A stretch of 64,000 nucleotides of DNA from an uncultured SAR86 cluster bacterium. GTDB lineage: Bacteria; Pseudomonadota; Gammaproteobacteria; Magnimaribacterales; Magnimaribacteraceae. The notes under the pieces are model-generated. The model saw nothing but the letters and a program-made list of their open reading frames with translations, had not been told where the DNA came from and searched no databases. Positions 4,218-23,860 of this stretch are shown piece by piece. The position numbers were made by a program, and so were the translations under genes. Each line of letters opens with the position of its first letter. Position 1 is the first letter of the stretch. The stretch is from assembly GCA_902532675.1 (NCBI GenBank), contig CACAIY010000002.1, positions 38,774 through 102,773 on the forward strand. The letters run 5' to 3'.

Positions 4218-4309
4218 GGATAGTTGGCAGAGTCTGGTTGAATGCACCGGTCTTGAAAACCGGCAAGGGGTCAAACCCTTCGGGGGTTCGAATCCCTCAC
4301 TATCCGCCA
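4218..4309 (+). tRNA. tRNA-Ser (anticodon UGA), class II with long variable arm, CCA encoded
   Basis: Acceptor stem GGATAGT/ACTATCC. D stem GCA/TGC. Anticodon stem CCGGT/ACCGG with loop CTTGAAA (UGA). Variable arm AAGGG..CCCTT. T arm GGGGG-TTCGAAT-CCCTC. 3' GCCA. Confidence 0.93.
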
Positions 4310-7417: not shown

Positions 7418-7999
7418 ATGAAATCCATTTGTGTTTATGCTGGTTCAGCTTCAGGAAATAAACCTGAGTTCACAGAAAAAGCTATTGAGCTCGGGTATGC
7501 GATAGCTGATAAGAATTTTTCTATGGTTTATGGCGGGGGGAGTAACGGCCTTATGGGAGTTACAGCTGACGCTGCTTTATCTAGAGGTGCAAACGTAACA
7601 GGTATTATCACTGAGCAGTTAGATGCAATAGAAGTGGGTCACAAAGGCTTAACTAAACTTGAGATAGTTTCTTCAATGCACGAAAGGAAATCGAGAATGG
7701 CTAAATTATCTGATGCCATTATTTCTTTACCTGGAGGAGTCGGTACTTGGGAAGAATTATTTGAAGCTCTAGCTTGGAATCAATTGGGTTTTTATTCAAA
7801 ACCCATAATACTATTTAATGTAGATGACTATTACTCTTCTCTTTACGATTTTTCTAAAGAAGCGGTTAAAAAAGGTTTTTTACCAAGGACAACATTTGAA
7901 GAATTTTTTATTTCTGATGATTTAGAAATAATTTTTGATTTTATATCGAAGTTTAAAAAGAAGGATGGCAAAGATTGGTACAAAAGATTAGAAAGATAG
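7418..7999 (+). CDS. LOG family protein (TIGR00730; cytokinin riboside 5'-monophosphate phosphoribohydrolase-like)
   Basis: 193 aa. Signature motifs VYGGGSNGLMG and PGGVGTWEELFE. Confidence 0.85.
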   Translation: MKSICVYAGSASGNKPEFTEKAIELGYAIADKNFSMVYGGGSNGLMGVTADAALSRGANVTGIITEQLDAIEVGHKGLTKLEIVSSMHERKSRMAKLSDAIISLPGGVGTWEELFEALAWNQLGFYSKPIILFNVDDYYSSLYDFSKEAVKKGFLPRTTFEEFFISDDLEIIFDFISKFKKKDGKDWYKRLER

Positions 8000-8057: not shown

Positions 8058-8221
8058 AGGACATATTTTGGAAAGAATCGGACCTCGAGACCCGAATCAG
8101 GAAAAAAATGGACAGAAGAAGAAGGGTGAAAGGATTAAACGAAAGTTAATCATCTGTGAGTTAGAAAGGGTACTAACCACACAGTGAGAAACCCGCACTG
8201 ACCCCTTCAACTTCGATTTTT
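8058..8221 (+). ncRNA. candidate purine/GGA-rich small RNA (element A), paralogous to 21895-22110(-)
   Basis: Six GGA triplets within 8059-8134. AGAAGAAGAAGG tract. Hairpins GATTAA-7-TTAATC (8133-8151) and CTGTGAGTTAG-8-CTAACCACACAG (8154-8184). No convincing local terminator. Ends and strand are inferred only. Confidence 0.3.
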
Positions 8222-8801
8222 AGAATTCAAAGCTCTCCAAAAGAGTATACTCAGTTTTTCCTTTATCAAATTCGCTCTCAAATACATTTAGTTGTTTCAC
8301 TTTTCCTTTCAAGGTTTTTTCAAATATTCCAAATTCATAGTGTGGTCGGTCTTTTTCTTTAAAGCGTCCCAACGTAATATGAGGTCTATAATCCTTTAGT
8401 TCAGAACCAAAGCCAATATTAACTACAATTCTTTCTACTTTCTCGTGAAGAGTTTTTAAATGTGAGCTAGGTTTCACTAAAGCGGATAGAACTTGGCTTT
8501 TTTCATTAGGAAAAAAAGAAATTTCAGTTAAATCAATAGAATTTGAAAGGCTTGCAAAGTTTATTTCTTTTAGGTTTTCATTCATTTGATTTATTTGTTC
8601 AGGTTCCATCTCGCCGACGAAACATACCGTAAGATGGTGTTGATCATTTTTTTGCCAAGAAATATTGGCATCTTTCAATAAATTAGACTTAAGCTCTTTC
8701 TTAATTTCTATAATTTGATTATTGAAATCCTTCTCAAGGGTTAACGCTATGAAAATTCTTGCCATATAAATACTGCTAAAATAATAATCCATATAAGCCA
8801 C
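8220..8801 (-). CDS. thpR: RNA 2',3'-cyclic phosphodiesterase (2H phosphoesterase, ThpR/LigT). The likely start is the internal Met at 8765 (MARIFIAL).
   Basis: Two HxT/S motifs (HHLTVCF and PHITLGRF) with the spacing typical of LigT. The first 12 codons of the track ORF look like an artefactual extension. Confidence 0.8.
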   Translation of the reverse strand: MAYMDYYFSSIYMARIFIALTLEKDFNNQIIEIKKELKSNLLKDANISWQKNDQHHLTVCFVGEMEPEQINQMNENLKEINFASLSNSIDLTEISFFPNEKSQVLSALVKPSSHLKTLHEKVERIVVNIGFGSELKDYRPHITLGRFKEKDRPHYEFGIFEKTLKGKVKQLNVFESEFDKGKTEYTLLESFEF

Positions 8802-21344: not shown

Positions 21345-21890
21345 ATGAATAAACCATCAATCTCATCAATATTTTCAGAACTGTCAAAGCTAGACGAAGA
21401 TACATTTCCACCCGTTGAGAAGTGGGACCCACCATTATGCGAGAACGTAGAAATGCGAATTGATAGATCTGGGAGATGGTTTTTTATGAATTCTCCAATT
21501 GGAAGAGAGAGAATGGTTAATTTATTTAGTAGAGTGCTGCGATTAGATTCTGATGGTTTTTATTATCTAGTTACTCCTGTAGAAAAAATTAGGATTATTG
21601 TAGAAGATAAACCATTCGTAATTATTGATTTTGAGATTCTAGGTTCCGGTGAACAACAAATAATAAATTTTAAAACAAATACCCATGAGACCTTTTCATT
21701 AAATTTAGATCATCCACTAAGAGTTGAAGTAAACAAGGAAACTTTAGAGCCTTCACCTTACGTATTAGTAAGAAAAAACTTAGAAGCTTTAATATCTAGA
21801 AACGTTTATTACAAATTAATTGATTTAGGAGAAGAGAAGGGAGAAGATTTTGGGCTTGTAAGCCAAGAATCTTTCTTTAAATTATATTAG
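21345..21890 (+). CDS. DUF1285 domain-containing protein
   Basis: 181 aa. Pattern W.PP.C...EMRIDRSGRWF...SPI.RERMVNLFSRVL..D.DG.YYLVTPVE matches my recollection of DUF1285. Starts immediately after the LysE stop. Confidence 0.55.
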   Translation: MNKPSISSIFSELSKLDEDTFPPVEKWDPPLCENVEMRIDRSGRWFFMNSPIGRERMVNLFSRVLRLDSDGFYYLVTPVEKIRIIVEDKPFVIIDFEILGSGEQQIINFKTNTHETFSLNLDHPLRVEVNKETLEPSPYVLVRKNLEALISRNVYYKLIDLGEEKGEDFGLVSQESFFKLY

Positions 21891-21894
21891 GGAC

Positions 21895-22110
21895 ATAAAA
21901 AAACAGAGCCTTAGCTCTGTTTAGTTCGAGTTCGAAAGTGTCTAGATTTGAGTTTTTTTCTCTAGCTCCTTGATCAATTTCTCTTTTGATCTTGGTGGTC
22001 TAATAAATCTTTTGGTACCTTTCTTTATTAGAGCTTTCACCTTCCGTTCTCTAACTTTCTTATCTCTTCCTTCTCCCGTCTCGAGTTGTTTCCAGATCGG
22101 ATAATTAAGT
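21895..22110 (-). ncRNA. candidate purine-rich small RNA or small basic-protein transcript (element B), paralogous to 8058-8221(+)
   Basis: Bounded by the promoter at 22117-22144 and the terminator at 21897-21922. Five GGA triplets. Hairpins CTAATAAA-16-TTTATTAG and GATCAA-8-TTGATC. No ATG anywhere in the transcript. Ends are inferred. Confidence 0.35.
21897..21922. terminator. intrinsic terminator hairpin, strongest on the minus strand (usable on both strands)
   Basis: AAACAGAGC-cTTA-GCTCTGTTT. On the minus strand the stem is followed by a 7-T run. On the plus strand it lies 10 nt after the DUF1285 stop, but only a short T run follows. Confidence 0.7.
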
Positions 22111-22116
22111 AAGGTA

Positions 22117-22176
22117 ATAATACTCTTTTTTAATAATCGGTCAACACTTTTTTTAACTTTTTTTTAACTTTTTTTT
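22117..22176 (-). promoter_or_regulatory. strong sigma70-like promoter with a phased A-tract (UP-element-like) array
   Basis: Minus strand: A8-GTT-A8-GTT-A7 (22148-22176, tract starts 10-11 bp apart), then TTGACC (22139-22144), a 16-nt spacer and TATTAT (22117-22122). Confidence 0.45.
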
Positions 22177-22210
22177 ACTTAATTTTATATAATATAAGTT
22201 ATTGATTTTA

Positions 22211-23860
22211 TTACATATTTGGGTAGTTAGGTCCTCCAGCTCCCTCAGGGGTTACCCAATTAATATTTTGAGAGGGATCTTTTATGTCACAAGTCTTACA
22301 GTGAACACAATTTTGTGCATTGATTTGGAAGATTTTATCACCATCTTTTTCAACTATTTCATATACTCCAGCAGGACAGTATCTTTGAGCAGGCTCATCA
22401 TATTTAGGTAAATTAATATCTATTGGTATAGAAGCATCTTTTAAAACTAGATGACAAGGTTGATCTTCTTCATGGTTAGTATTCGATAAAAAGACTGAAG
22501 AGAGTTTATCAAAACTAATTACTCCATCAGGTTTAGGGTAATCTATTTTTGGCAGTTCATTGGCTTCTTTTAAACAATCATGATCTGGTTGATCGTGATG
22601 AAGTGTAAAAGGTAATTTACCTCTAAATATGAGTTGATCCATGCCGGCCAAAGCTACTCCTAACAAAGTTCCGAACTTATGAATAAATGGTAAAAAATTT
22701 CTAGCCTTATGAAGTTCCTTTTCTAGCCAAGAAGATTGTAAGTTTGATTGAAAGTTTGCAATATCTTTATTTGACTCTTCTTTAATTATTTCTTCGTAAA
22801 TACTTTCTGCTCCTATCATTCCTGATTTCATTGCAGTATGAGTTCCTTTAATTCTAGGAAAATTCATAGTTCCAGCATCATCTCCTACAAGCAACCCTCC
22901 GGGGAAATGCATCTTAGGAATTGATTGGTAACCACCTTTGATTAGAGCTCTGGCACCGTAAGCAGTTCTTGTTCCTCCTTCTAAATATTTTTTTATCGAA
23001 GCTTGATGTTTCCATTGTTGAAATTCATCAAAAGGGCTAATGTGCGGGTTGTCGTAATCTAAAGGTACTATATAACCCAAGAATGCTTGATTATTTTCAC
23101 CATGGTAGAAATACGAACCGGATAGAACTCCTTTTGCTGCAGGCCATCCCATTGTGTGTATTACAAGACCTTCCTCGTGTAATTCAGGGTTTATATCCCA
23201 AACTTCTTTAAAGCCTATGCCATAGTGTTGAGGATCGCTATCTTTATCGAGATTAAATTGTTTTATTACTTGTTTTCCTAAATGTCCTCTACAACCTTCC
23301 GATAAGACTGTATATTTTGCTAAAAGGTCTATACCTGGTTCAAAGCTAGGTTTCTTTTCACCAGAAGCATCAAGCCCCATGTCTCCTGTCGAGACTCCAA
23401 TTACAGTTTCATTATCGTAAATAAGTTTAGATGCTGTAAAACCAGGGAAAATATCTATTTCTAATCCTTCAGCGTATTCACCTAACCATCTACAAAAATT
23501 ACCTAGACTCATGATGTAATTACCATGATTTTTAAATGTTGTTGCAAATAATGTAGGTATTGAAAATGCACTAGAATCATTAAGCAAATAACGTACTGAA
23601 TCTTTTTTTACAGGAGTGTTGAGTGGAGCTTCTAATTCTTTCCAATCAGGTATTAGTTCATTAAGAGCTTTTGGATCAAAAACATTACCTGAAAGGATGT
23701 GAGCTCCAATTTCAGAACCTTTTTCAACCACGCAAATAGAAATTTCTTTAGAATTTTTATCACATAACTGTTTTAACTTTATTGCGGTAGATAGTCCTGC
23801 CGGACCAGCGCCAACAATAACTACGTCATACTCCATTGATTCTCTTTCGGTGTTTTCCAT
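22211..23860 (-). CDS. electron-transfer flavoprotein:ubiquinone oxidoreductase (ETF-QO)
   Basis: 549 aa. FAD motif VVIVGAGPAGLS. C-terminal 4Fe-4S ferredoxin-like region (CPAGVYE ... NCVHCKTCDIKDP). Divergent from etfBA. Confidence 0.95.
   Translation of the reverse strand: MENTERESMEYDVVIVGAGPAGLSTAIKLKQLCDKNSKEISICVVEKGSEIGAHILSGNVFDPKALNELIPDWKELEAPLNTPVKKDSVRYLLNDSSAFSIPTLFATTFKNHGNYIMSLGNFCRWLGEYAEGLEIDIFPGFTASKLIYDNETVIGVSTGDMGLDASGEKKPSFEPGIDLLAKYTVLSEGCRGHLGKQVIKQFNLDKDSDPQHYGIGFKEVWDINPELHEEGLVIHTMGWPAAKGVLSGSYFYHGENNQAFLGYIVPLDYDNPHISPFDEFQQWKHQASIKKYLEGGTRTAYGARALIKGGYQSIPKMHFPGGLLVGDDAGTMNFPRIKGTHTAMKSGMIGAESIYEEIIKEESNKDIANFQSNLQSSWLEKELHKARNFLPFIHKFGTLLGVALAGMDQLIFRGKLPFTLHHDQPDHDCLKEANELPKIDYPKPDGVISFDKLSSVFLSNTNHEEDQPCHLVLKDASIPIDINLPKYDEPAQRYCPAGVYEIVEKDGDKIFQINAQNCVHCKTCDIKDPSQNINWVTPEGAGGPNYPNM

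Follow-up and report, generated by a model that had tools for sequence, protein, structure and literature searches.

Weinberg et al. reportedly described the IMES-1 RNA motif in 2009, from environmental sequence only and with no cultured host, and Shi et al. are said to have counted it among the abundant marine small RNAs in the same year; a 2009 report reportedly placed it among the most abundant non-ribosomal RNAs in ocean metatranscriptomes. To our knowledge, neither a function nor a cultured host has been given for IMES-1, and the searchable literature shows none either. The discovery of abundant non-coding RNAs in marine metatranscriptomes has been published (PMC8049014). Full-text literature searches for IMES-1, IMES-5 and SAR86 small RNAs returned nothing relevant, and no paper tying IMES-1 to SAR86 was found. 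The IMES-5 RNA was reportedly described by Weinberg et al. in 2017.

An IMES-1 gene between DUF1285 and ETF-QO

The window is the whole 64-kb stretch of SAR86 (Magnimaribacterales) DNA that was analysed, in which the convergent DUF1285 and ETF-QO genes enclose a spacer of 320 bp. A first-pass annotation had proposed a self-contained minus-strand transcription unit in this spacer, and a sequence check found every feature that it listed where it had been placed. An Rfam search, which that annotation had called for, returned a full-length match to RF02034 in the spacer, covering model positions 1-191 of 191 at 131.5 bits (gathering score 81; E 4e-30). The RNA of the spacer is almost certainly IMES-1, and the element is already known as that catalogued RNA family; RF02034 was also called in HIMB1674, SAR86A, SAR86E and the other genome loci tested. 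The main features of the locus are the following:

21345-21890 (+): DUF1285 gene, left flank of the spacer
22211-23860 (-): ETF-QO gene, right flank of the spacer
22148..22176 (-): three phased A tracts, A8-GTT-A8-GTT-A7, in UP-element position (sequence)
22139..22144 (-): -35 hexamer TTGACC (promoter scan and homologue alignment)
22117..22122 (-): -10 hexamer TATTAT, 16 nt from the -35 (promoter scan and homologue counts)
22110 (-): predicted transcription start, an A 7 nt past the -10 hexamer (from promoter geometry and consensus fold)
21916..22106 (-): IMES-1 RNA, full-length match to Rfam RF02034 (covariance model)
21897..21922 (-): intrinsic terminator AAACAGAGC-UAAG-GCUCUGUUU and U tract (terminator scan and homologue counts)

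The window copy shares its helices, conserved junction sequences and marine origin with the IMES-1 family, and the locus is a member of it. Its marine origin is reflected in exact matches of the flanking DUF1285 protein in Tara Oceans and JGI marine assemblies, and in the presence of IMES-1 homologues in SAR86 single-cell and metagenome-assembled genomes. However, the copy falls in a divergent subgroup, which scores 131-145 bits as against ~190-206 for the main SAR86 clade. It differs in its weak 5' helices with non-standard pairs (including the two outer pairs of the 5' helix), in a loop that is 3 nt shorter, and in the hexamer CUCGAG instead of CUGCAG.

Distribution of the unit in SAR86

A profile search recovered ~110 homologous copies in ~100 genome loci, nearly all of them from SAR86 (Magnimaribacterales). 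HIMB1674 (CP151794), the first SAR86 isolate in culture, carries IMES-1 at the DUF1285/ETF-QO position, at about 437,676-437,928. The first-pass annotation had named absence of the spacer from close relatives as an observation that would speak against the unit; both spacer and RNA were present in all 17 syntenic loci found, in which ETF-QO is 71-95% identical. This site is conserved only in the clade containing HIMB1674. Other SAR86 clades have one to two IMES-1 copies elsewhere, beside pyruvate kinase/IDO, GH2, OadB or PDH E1, and sometimes in tandem, each tandem copy with its own promoter. As shown by comparison of these loci, promoter, RNA and terminator move and duplicate together, with no constant gene neighbour across SAR86.

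The full-length IMES-1 core, together with a promoter and terminator kept in all 100 aligned homologues, bears out the proposal of a self-contained transcription unit. Judged from the alignment, a chance origin is ruled out by the fact that 100 distinct homologues have kept the unit in its entirety.

Fourteen pattern matches in high-GC genomes (Eubacteriales, Pseudomonas, Isosphaeraceae and others; GC 54-69%) were set aside as chance. Of seven pattern matches in IMG/VR, three proved to be incomplete IMES-1 copies located at the ends of contigs; in one the copy is joined to a picorna-like RNA-virus contig, in another to a T4-like gp23 contig, and the third is locus L122. Phage carriage was considered for these and rejected, the truncated contig-end copies being read as chimeras and not as phage genes. 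The fusions to the RNA-virus and gp23 contigs were counted as indirect evidence that the RNA exists in quantity.

Promoter, terminator and autonomy

The three A tracts lie on the minus strand at 22176-22169 (A8), 22165-22158 (A8) and 22154-22148 (A7), each followed by GTT or GTG, and the near-consensus promoter that had been described downstream of them was found as TTGACC at 22144-22139 and TATTAT at 22122-22117, with 16 nt in between. The emphasis on A tracts holds for the window, where all three are present, but not for the family, in which the middle tract is mostly T-rich rather than A-rich. In the alignment, most homologues have A7, then T8, then A7 upstream of the -35, and 87 of 100 have T5 or longer in the -57 to -47 region, where the distal UP region of the window is A-rich and not T-rich. 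By its sequence, the T-rich middle tract of most homologues matches the classical UP-element layout even better. The promoter-proximal AAAAAAGTG of the window agrees with AAAAAARNR, reportedly the consensus of the E. coli proximal UP subsite given by Estrem et al. in 1998/1999; an exact AAAAAARNR occurs in 28 of the 100 homologues. A/T-rich proximal and distal subsites, such as UP elements have between -38 and -59, are present.

All 100 aligned units combine TTGNNN, a spacer of 16-17 nt and TANNNT with A/T tracts in UP-element position. The TTG of the -35 is kept in every one, its commonest form being TTGACA (53/100), as is the TANNNT of the -10, and the spacer is exactly 16 nt in 99. The unit and its orthologues thus have the conserved -35 and -10 elements at 16-18 nt spacing by which sigma-70 promoters are recognised. 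A plain sigma-70 consensus scan showed no enrichment in this AT-rich region (13 sites vs 15.4 expected), and the composite A6-N3-TTGAC-N16-18-TANNNT had one match in 64 kb vs 0.03 expected. To judge by these motifs, the region 22117-22176 (-) is a sigma-70-type promoter with UP-element-like A/T tracts, at which binding of the alpha subunit is putative. It resembles the UP promoters of the rrn P1 type in the A tract directly upstream of the -35, in the T tract at about -47 to -57 of most homologues and in its near-consensus hexamers. It differs from them in its discriminator between the -10 and the start, which is AT-rich whereas theirs is GC-rich, and, in the window copy, in having A tracts at the place that the T tract takes in most homologues.

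At the other end of the unit, the strong terminator of the first-pass annotation is present at 21897-21919 (-) as CAGAGC-TAAG-GCTCTG followed by T7. The terminator scan extended its stem to 9 bp (21922-21901; 4-nt loop, T7), and its end lies 7 nt from the DUF1285 stop codon. A regex count found the core CAG(A/G)G-loop-CUCUG, followed by T7-T10, in 100 of 100 homologues.

The scan found no terminator between ETF-QO and the IMES-1 promoter, so that some read-through from ETF-QO into IMES-1 is likely besides the promoter-driven transcription. This arrangement, with IMES-1 on the ETF-QO strand and 59 nt downstream of that gene, would suit a mere 3' UTR or read-through tail of ETF-QO, with the hairpin as a terminator common to the convergent genes and the promoter as a chance AT-rich match; plain promoter-like matches are indeed frequent in this DNA. 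However, such a tail is highly improbable, because in other SAR86 clades the same promoter-RNA-terminator unit stands beside genes of other kinds that are unrelated, frequently in divergent orientation to the gene upstream, and also in tandem arrays, and because conservation of -35, -10 and 16-nt spacing is put at 100/100. The retention of promoter, A/T tracts and terminator with the RNA in every one of the 100 homologues argues for an autonomous gene and against read-through from ETF-QO. On these comparisons, IMES-1 at this locus is very probably transcribed independently, and, taking identity and autonomy jointly, we are highly confident that this SAR86 (Magnimaribacterales) genome has a complete IMES-1 gene in the spacer.

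Transcript and coding potential

The start is placed at 22110, with helix P1 beginning 1-2 nt downstream of it (the consensus fold starts from alignment columns 2-3), and the predicted RNA is ~211-214 nt long. The 214-nt transcript is 64% purine by composition count, and no 214-nt stretch elsewhere in the 64-kb window, on either strand, is as rich in purines as the richest one in this spacer. Its folding z-score is -4.3 relative to shuffles. No ATG occurs in 22110-21897, as against 3.9 expected from composition, which agrees with what had been noted for the transcribed region.

A coding alternative is a small basic protein encoded by a 32-codon GUG frame at 21942-22040 (-), MKALIKKGTKRFIRPPRSKEKLIKELEKKTQI. 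The window and 32 of 97 homologues have this frame uninterrupted, and the lengths of some indels are divisible by three. Yet only 56 of 97 sequences begin it with GUG, 32 having GCG and 6 GAG there; the frame has at most 21 codons in 56 of the 97, with early stops in more than half; it is not preceded by a properly spaced Shine-Dalgarno sequence; and substitutions track base-pairing rather than codon position. With neither start codon nor open frame conserved among the 97 homologues, the frame was rejected as coding, leaving this alternative a negligible probability, and the description of the product as a purine-rich non-coding RNA of ~215 nt stands.

Conserved fold and single-stranded segments

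The structural elements of the RNA, from 5' to 3', are the following:

22078..22087 (-): apical loop of the 5' hairpin, AACUCGAGAC, with the palindromic hexamer CUCGAG at 22080-22085 (consensus fold)
22033..22046 (-): 5' strand of the long-range helix, CGGAAG, and junction motif GGUGAAAGC (covariance-model structure)
21999..22033 (-): hairpin with 9-bp stem and A-rich loop, CTAATAAA-16-TTTATTAG (covariance-model structure)
21991..21998 (-): invariant single-stranded CCACCAAG (100 aligned sequences)
21972..21991 (-): hairpin GAUCA-loop(AAAGAGAAAU)-UGAUC, loop AAGAGA invariant (helix 6, alignment)
21965..21972 (-): near-invariant single-stranded CAAGGAGC, the only CAAGGAGC in the window (alignment)
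21942..21965 (-): hairpin CUAGAG-loop-AUCUAG (helix 7)
21924..21938 (-): 3' strand of the long-range helix, CUUUCG, and conserved tail CUCGAAC (structure and alignment)

In the predicted fold shown by these elements, the 5' domain is a hairpin that bears the apical loop AA-CUCGAG-AC, and the three hairpins of the 3' domain are enclosed by the long-range helix. The two good hairpins that had been noticed at the outset, the 9-bp hairpin and GATCAA-8-TTGATC, are both present. The covariation score of the homologue alignment is 0.364, compared with 0.136 for shuffles (0 of 500 reach 0.364) and at most 0.125 for slid partners. Helices 2, 6 and 7 are 97-100% paired: helix 6 in 99.6%, with compensatory pairs at 4 of 5 positions, and helix 7 in 97%, with 5 of 6. 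The long-range helix is 80% paired, and four of its pairs have changed on both sides. Because MAFFT aligned the 9-bp hairpin and the terminator wrongly from one clade to another and so lowered their scores in the covariation test, RNAalifold and the regex count were used for these two elements. In the 9-bp hairpin, 9 of 9 pairs (columns 88-96 with 120-128) have changed on both sides according to RNAalifold, an independent run of which recovered five helices, with 28 of 39 pairs compensatory.

Purine-rich single strands (GGUGAAAGC, CCACCAAG, AAGAGA and CAAGGAGC) occupy junctions and loops of this fold and appear invariant in the alignment, although part of this constancy was imposed on CCACCAAG, AAGAGA and most of CAAGGAGC (6 of 8 positions), whose letters were prescribed by the pattern used to collect the homologues. 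The GAAAG of the junction region is also invariant in the alignment, and the junction motif GGUGAAAGC is common to IMES-1 and IMES-5.

Two further pairings were tried and rejected. A pseudoknot between UCGAG of the apical loop and CUCGA of the 3' tail could form 5 bp in the window clade, but the tail is unchanged where the loop is CUGCAG. A GGUG-CACC pairing around the 9-bp hairpin is contradicted by a change of GUG to GCG in 32 of 97 sequences, with CCACC invariant and thus no compensation.

Possible mode of action

The SELEX core bound by CsrA is reportedly (A)CARGGAU, and the first-pass annotation had drawn attention to five GGA triplets in the transcript. The count is correct, but it is no enrichment, since 4.0 are expected from composition. 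A CsrB/RsmZ-type sponge, which would titrate a CsrA-family translational repressor through GGA motifs, would account for the purine-rich composition, for the resemblance of the near-invariant single-stranded CAAGGAGC to the SELEX core, and for high expression, as is presumed for IMES-1. We consider it very doubtful, given that the conserved hairpin loops, AAGAGA and AAUCUCA, hold no GGA, that the second GGA-rich stretch of other clades, GAAGGAAGAG, is AAAGUUAGAG in the window clade, and that no Csr/Rsm family of Rfam matches. Thus, although IMES-1 may share with the CsrB/RsmY/RsmZ sponges the character of a purine-rich, highly expressed decoy and one conserved A(A)GGA-type motif, it lacks their repeated loop GGA and is not a member; the reading based on GGA enrichment was ruled out by the counts and the placement of the motifs. 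A tblastn search for CsrA and Hfq in the window and the genome loci gave no match in ~1 Mb in all, which is too little DNA to show absence. The supplements of the HIMB1674 paper (PMC11582366) make no mention of CsrA or Hfq.

CAAGGAGC also resembles a Shine-Dalgarno sequence, the one such motif that is near-invariant in IMES-1, and no start codon follows it. In the window, AAGGAG occurs 45 times and about 8-12 of 55 genes have any Shine-Dalgarno-like motif; the idea of a decoy for the ribosome (30S) is weakened by this rarity in the genes of this genome.

A conventional sRNA that regulates mRNAs by antisense seed pairing would be expected to have the layout seen here, in which the gene stands alone and ends in a Rho-independent terminator and U tail, a typical Hfq-binding module. 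However, the long invariant segments and the multi-helix fold are kept across the whole order, unlike those of short-seed sRNAs, and the long invariant unpaired purine runs suggest recognition by a conserved partner and not by variable mRNAs. In addition, an RNA so rich in purines cannot mask purine-rich ribosome-binding sites by pairing with them, and the expression level suggested by the promoter would be unusual for stoichiometric antisense regulators. This mode is unlikely, and antisense regulation of mRNAs seems less likely than a protein partner or decoy.

The variable genome position of IMES-1 fits an RNA acting in trans, and it would presumably be made at a very high level: its abundance is suggested by the earlier literature, the promoter architecture and the IMG/VR fusions. 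We propose that IMES-1 may serve some abundant, conserved protein or cellular machine as its RNA partner or as a decoy, following the titration or ribonucleoprotein logic of 6S RNA and CsrB. That it works by binding or sequestering a protein, as an abundant decoy RNA, is our best guess, offered tentatively and at somewhat less than even chances. The favoured logic is that of 6S RNA (SsrS), likewise an abundant, stand-alone, structured RNA of ~200 nt that binds a protein machine. The likeness is one of analogy: IMES-1 has a multi-hairpin fold instead of a rod with a central bubble, it is not a 6S member, and 6S models found no match at the locus at E<=1.

Possible relationship with IMES-5 and the palindromic loop

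An IMES-5 RNA (Rfam RF02995) lies in the same window at 8064-8215 (+). The IMES-1 model aligns with it full-length at 30 bits (E 1.3e-4 locally, 0.018 over the whole window) and gives 23-35 bits on 8 of 20 metagenomic IMES-5 loci, whereas the IMES-5 model found no match at the IMES-1 locus at E<=1. Both RNAs have the same order of elements, namely a 5' hairpin with the loop AA-CUCGAG-AC, GAAGGGUGAAAG, CCACC, three hairpins, GAC with the closing helix, and a CUUCGA tail. IMES-5 is shorter (150 vs 191 model positions) and differs in its hairpin loops, AAGGGUA and GAAACCC, and in the -35 of its promoter, TTGCA. No Rfam clan is listed for the two families. From the full-length alignment of the IMES-1 model on IMES-5 loci, IMES-1 and IMES-5 look paralogous.

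The hexamer of the apical loop is CUGCAG in 72 of 100 homologues, CUCGAG in 17, CUUAAG in 5, CUAUAG in 1 and AUGCAG in 5, so that its centre covaries among GC, CG, UA and AU and is always self-complementary. An analogy is offered by the dimer initiation site (DIS) of HIV-1, whose 9-nt loop holds a 6-nt palindrome with purines on either side. In IMES-1, the apical loop has 10 nt, the 6-nt palindrome is flanked by AA on its 5' side and AC on its 3' side, and the central pair covaries with self-complementarity kept; IMES-1 differs in being a bacterial chromosomal RNA, whose dimer is putative.

The covarying palindrome hints at kissing-loop dimerisation. IMES-1 might self-associate through AA-CUNNAG-AC, as a homodimer or as a heterodimer with IMES-5, the dimer or a higher assembly being the functional unit; this would be compatible with protein binding. 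Four of the hexamers are full palindromes, none of the 100 sequences shows an intermediate with just one of the central bases changed, and a C-G pair closes the loop. Accessibility predictions put the hexamer above average (0.63 unpaired vs 0.45 overall), the CUCGAG of IMES-5 is invariant in 67 sequences, and the hexamers are identical on both DNA stretches that carry both RNAs (the window and locus L163). On the other hand, only ~3 independent switches are involved, with a chance probability of ~0.04 by estimate; AUGCAG leaves a 4-bp palindrome; the AU-rich variants form weak duplexes (-3.2 and -3.8 kcal/mol); and folding predictions have the hexamer of the window clade partly engaged in intramolecular pairs. 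Taken together, self-association appears rather unlikely, and we give a similarly low probability to the broader proposal that IMES-1 and IMES-5 are paralogues of one SAR86 RNA superfamily that act as kissing-loop multimers, as RNA or ribonucleoprotein, and not as monomeric regulators.

Implications

The discovery value of the spacer finding is modest, since the element is a known family. Newly noted in the present comparison are the full-length alignment of the IMES-1 model to IMES-5 loci and the apical loop AA-CUNNAG-AC that is common to both. Few heterotrophic bacterial groups of the surface ocean are as abundant as SAR86, and IMES-1, an orphan RNA, is now placed in it (Magnimaribacterales), including the cultured strain HIMB1674. 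As this strain carries IMES-1 at the same DUF1285/ETF-QO position, the orphan RNA becomes experimentally approachable, and leads to its mechanism may come from a promoter built like those of rRNA genes, from its apparent paralogy to IMES-5 and from the palindromic loop with its covarying centre.

Identification of the spacer element as IMES-1

When the window was scanned against Rfam 15, the spacer between the DUF1285 and ETF-QO genes gave a match to IMES-1 (RF02034) that covers the whole model (positions 1-191 of 191) and, at 131.5 bits and E 4e-30, exceeds the gathering score of 81. The spacer thus contains an RNA of a family already described. The first-pass annotation, which had read a minus-strand unit producing an abundant RNA of ~215 nt and had proposed this Rfam search, is thereby confirmed in its observation and supported in its interpretation, although the element itself had been catalogued earlier, as IMES-1. 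In the 2009 work of Weinberg and colleagues, IMES-1 reportedly came from marine environmental sequences only, had no assigned function and stood out in metatranscriptomes by its exceptional abundance.

Features of the spacer and its borders (window coordinates)
21345-21890, plus strand: DUF1285 gene, one border of the 320-bp spacer
22211-23860, minus strand: ETF-QO gene, other border, convergent with DUF1285
22176-22148, minus strand: A8-GTT-A8-GTT-A7 tracts, then GTG (read from sequence)
22144-22139, minus strand: -35 TTGACC (sequence and consensus scan)
22122-22117, minus strand: -10 TATTAT, 16-nt spacer from -35 (sequence and consensus scan)
22110-21897, minus strand: predicted transcript, 214 nt, start site predicted at 22110
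21916-22106, minus strand: IMES-1 match
21897-21919, minus strand: terminator CAGAGC-TAAG-GCTCTG then T7 (sequence; 9-bp stem by consensus scan)

The convergent genes with their 320-bp spacer, the phased A tracts, the near-consensus promoter, the two named hairpins and the terminator are all present as the annotation described them. Promoter-like sites are not in excess in the AT-rich DNA here (13 against 15.4 expected by consensus scan), so the hexamers alone are little proof; the composite A6-N3-TTGAC-N16-18-TANNNT matches once in 64 kb against 0.03 expected. The predicted transcript is indeed purine-rich (64% over 214 nt), the spacer containing the most purine-rich 214-nt stretch of the window when both strands are compared, and its fold has z = -4.3 against dinucleotide shuffles. 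It likewise lacks ATG, with 3.9 expected, whereas the five GGA triplets were correctly counted but carry no meaning as an enrichment, 4.0 being expected. On the opposite strand, a promoter-like site (TTAACT-18-TATAAT, 22164-22193, plus strand) lies within the A-tract region and is aimed into the antisense strand of ETF-QO; in DNA so rich in AT, it probably arose by chance.

A conserved promoter-RNA-terminator unit

In an alignment of 100 distinct IMES-1 copies with 75 nt upstream, the TTG of the -35 element is invariant (commonest form TTGACA, 53/100), the -10 TANNNT occurs in every copy, and the two are 16 nt apart in 99. An A tract directly adjoins the -35, in the window as AAAAAAGTG, which fits AAAAAARNR, reported by Estrem et al. 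for the proximal UP subsite in E. coli, and a T tract lies ~10 bp farther upstream in 87 of the copies. Given these conserved tracts in the homologues, the phased A tracts of the window are a local version of a putative UP-like region. All 100 copies also keep the terminator core CAG(A/G)G-loop-CUCUG-T7-10. Its stem CAGAG/CUCUG (window 21897-21922, all homologues) is essentially invariant across the order, more than termination alone requires, and may have a second role as a protein-binding or stability module.

The Rfam structure was projected onto the alignment, with shuffles and slid partners as controls. Paired cells reached 73%, compared with 59% for shuffles, and the covariation score was 0.364 against 0.136 (0/500 shuffles reaching 0.364; slid partners at most 0.125), with three hairpin helices 97-100% paired and almost all of their pairs compensatory. 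RNAalifold, applied independently to 28 diverse copies, recovered the 5' helices, the 9-bp hairpin and two short hairpins (28/39 pairs compensatory), with helix P1 beginning 1-2 nt past the predicted start site 22110. The RNA also stands as non-coding: a 32-codon GUG frame inside it (21942-22040, minus strand) is not conserved among 97 homologues, the start being GUG in 56, GCG in 32 and GAG in 6, and the frame shrinking to at most 21 codons in 56.

Distribution and genomic context

A search for the conserved-core pattern CCACCAAG...AAGAGA...CAAGGNGC over one genome per GTDB species gave at least 119 stretches, which among the matches listed are overwhelmingly from SAR86 single-cell and metagenome-assembled genomes and include two complete genomes, CP097973 and CP151794; the second is that of Magnimaribacter mokuoloeensis HIMB1674, the SAR86 strain first brought into culture (PMC11582366). 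A nucleotide profile confirmed ~110 copies among the loci listed; by profile and GC, 14 pattern matches in 54-69% GC genomes are chance (window GC, 34%). Rfam scored IMES-1 above threshold in 14/14 genome loci tested (HIMB1674, at 145.5 bits, SAR86A, SAR86E, a Porticoccaceae MAG and ten others). Among the matches listed, the closest relatives over the unit are the SAR86 single-cell genomes AG-343-J11 (96% identity) and AG-319-O13 (92%). Exact copies of the DUF1285 protein of the window are found in marine assemblies from Tara Oceans and JGI. Bona fide IMES-1 was also observed on low-GC contigs (32-43%) in genome bins (loci L044, L098, L021, L048, L060, L091, L112, L008, L016) labelled Neomarinimicrobiota, Bdellovibrionota, Woeseia/Woeseiaceae, Pseudohongiella or Porticoccaceae, reflecting either mis-binning or mislabelling, or a family that reaches a few other marine Gammaproteobacteria.

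The spacer is not absent in close relatives, which the first-pass annotation had named as a possible refutation: IMES-1 sits within a conserved MurB-LysE-DUF1285-[IMES-1]-ETF-QO-ETF-beta/alpha order in 17 loci, HIMB1674 included (ETF-QO identity 71-95%, DUF1285 down to 54%). Other SAR86 clades carry the same cassette elsewhere: flanked by an IDO-family gene and pyruvate kinase, following a GH2 glycosidase, next to OadB, or ahead of PDH E1. Two copies are found in at least 16 SAR86 genomes, with tandem or nearby duplicates at the homologous loci L033, L050, L117, L078, L088 and L097.

Tandem IMES-1 duplicates (spacing ~300 nt; promoter and terminator present in each copy)
L033, 1571-2135: between IDO-family gene and pyruvate kinase
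L050, 2166-2751: between IDO-family gene and pyruvate kinase
L117, 6437-7013

These tandem duplicates look like gene-dosage amplification. Since the cassette keeps its own promoter while its neighbours change, comparison of the sequences argues for an autonomous gene, with a product predicted to act in trans, and against an ETF-QO 3' UTR. The independent minus-strand transcription unit originally proposed is borne out to the same extent, its predicted promoter and terminator being conserved in 100/100 copies beside variable neighbours.

Expression and viral contigs

Abundant non-coding RNAs have been described from marine metatranscriptomes (reviewed in PMC8049014). Truncated IMES-1 copies lie at the ends of three IMG/VR contigs.

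Truncated IMES-1 copies
L125, 1-172: genome of a picorna-like RNA virus (RdRp, helicase and capsid domains)
L126, 1877-2060: contig with T4-like gp23 and scaffold genes
L122, 1925-2009: IMG/VR contig classed as viral

Most likely, these ends are not viral genes but arose when metatranscriptome assembly joined the contigs to an abundant RNA. As the RNA-virus contig is necessarily RNA-derived, its simplest reading is a chimera assembled with a transcript of very high abundance, and on that reading it is an indirect sign of IMES-1 expression.

Possible modes of action

The unpaired segments GGUGAAAGC, CCACCAAG, AAGAGA, CAAGGAGC, GAC and UCG vary little or not at all in the alignment, although for CCACCAAG, AAGAGA and most of CAAGGAGC this is partly imposed, as they were fixed in the retrieving pattern. 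This constancy spans lineages whose flanking proteins share 45-70% identity and, together with the rRNA-like promoter and the dosage-raising duplications, suggests that a conserved macromolecular partner would recognise IMES-1. We therefore favour, tentatively, an abundant RNA that would bind a protein, serve as a decoy or form a ribonucleoprotein subunit. Action as a short-seed antisense regulator is less likely, because the constraint points to a conserved partner and a purine-rich RNA is unable to occlude ribosome-binding sites; a CsrB-type sponge is unlikely, as GGA is neither enriched nor located in loops. The 6S-type fold is absent, and Rfam model scans gave no match of a related family to IMES-1. 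The AAGGAG motif could make the RNA a ribosome decoy, a reading weakened by the rare use of Shine-Dalgarno sequences in the window genome: upstream of 55 window ORFs of at least 150 aa, GGAG occurs in 8, AGGA in 11 and AAGGAG in 3, most leaders being merely AT-rich.

The apical-loop hexamer (n = 100) is CUGCAG in 72 copies, CUCGAG in 17, CUUAAG in 5 and CUAUAG in 1, a palindrome with a covarying central dinucleotide, with AUGCAG in the other five. As adjacent bases are unable to pair with each other, the retained self-complementarity suggests an intermolecular duplex. Such a duplex would be a kissing-loop dimer, a lead to which we give a low probability, the events being few (chance probability ~0.04) and the AU-rich variants weak.

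IMES-5 as a possible paralogue

A second orphan marine RNA, IMES-5 (RF02995; Rfam, 135 bits), lies at window 8064-8215 (plus strand), between ORFs 7418-7999 (plus) and 8220-8801 (minus), downstream of a T-rich region and a -35-like hexamer TTGCAT. The IMES-1 model aligns end to end on it (30 bits; E 1.3e-4 local, 0.018 for the whole window) and on 8/20 metagenomic IMES-5 loci (23-35 bits), as no other family does, although the reciprocal match of the IMES-5 model to the IMES-1 locus is missing and Rfam lists no clan. The elements of both RNAs follow one order: a 5' hairpin whose apical loop is AA-CUCGAG-AC, then GAAGGGUGAAAG, CCACC, three hairpins, GAC with the closing helix, and finally a CU(U)CGA tail. 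In the window, the two copies share the loop AACUCGAGAC and the junction GAAGGGUGAAAG. IMES-1 and IMES-5 are probably paralogues. As regards the possible kissing-loop dimer, the hexamer is invariantly CUCGAG in IMES-5, and identical between the two RNAs in the stretches containing both (the window and L163). The metagenomic IMES-5 loci are syntenic with the window (GC 29-37%). In the window, a tRNA-Ser(UGA) (4218-4309, plus strand) is overlapped by a weak and probably spurious sX4 match (30.5 bits, below the gathering score of 70); several metagenomic loci have a tRNA with the same 89-nt span 0.1-0.8 kb from IMES-5.

What remains of interest in this family is that it can be placed in SAR86 and in a cultured strain, together with its conserved UP-type promoter and the leads offered by IMES-5 paralogy and loop palindromy.
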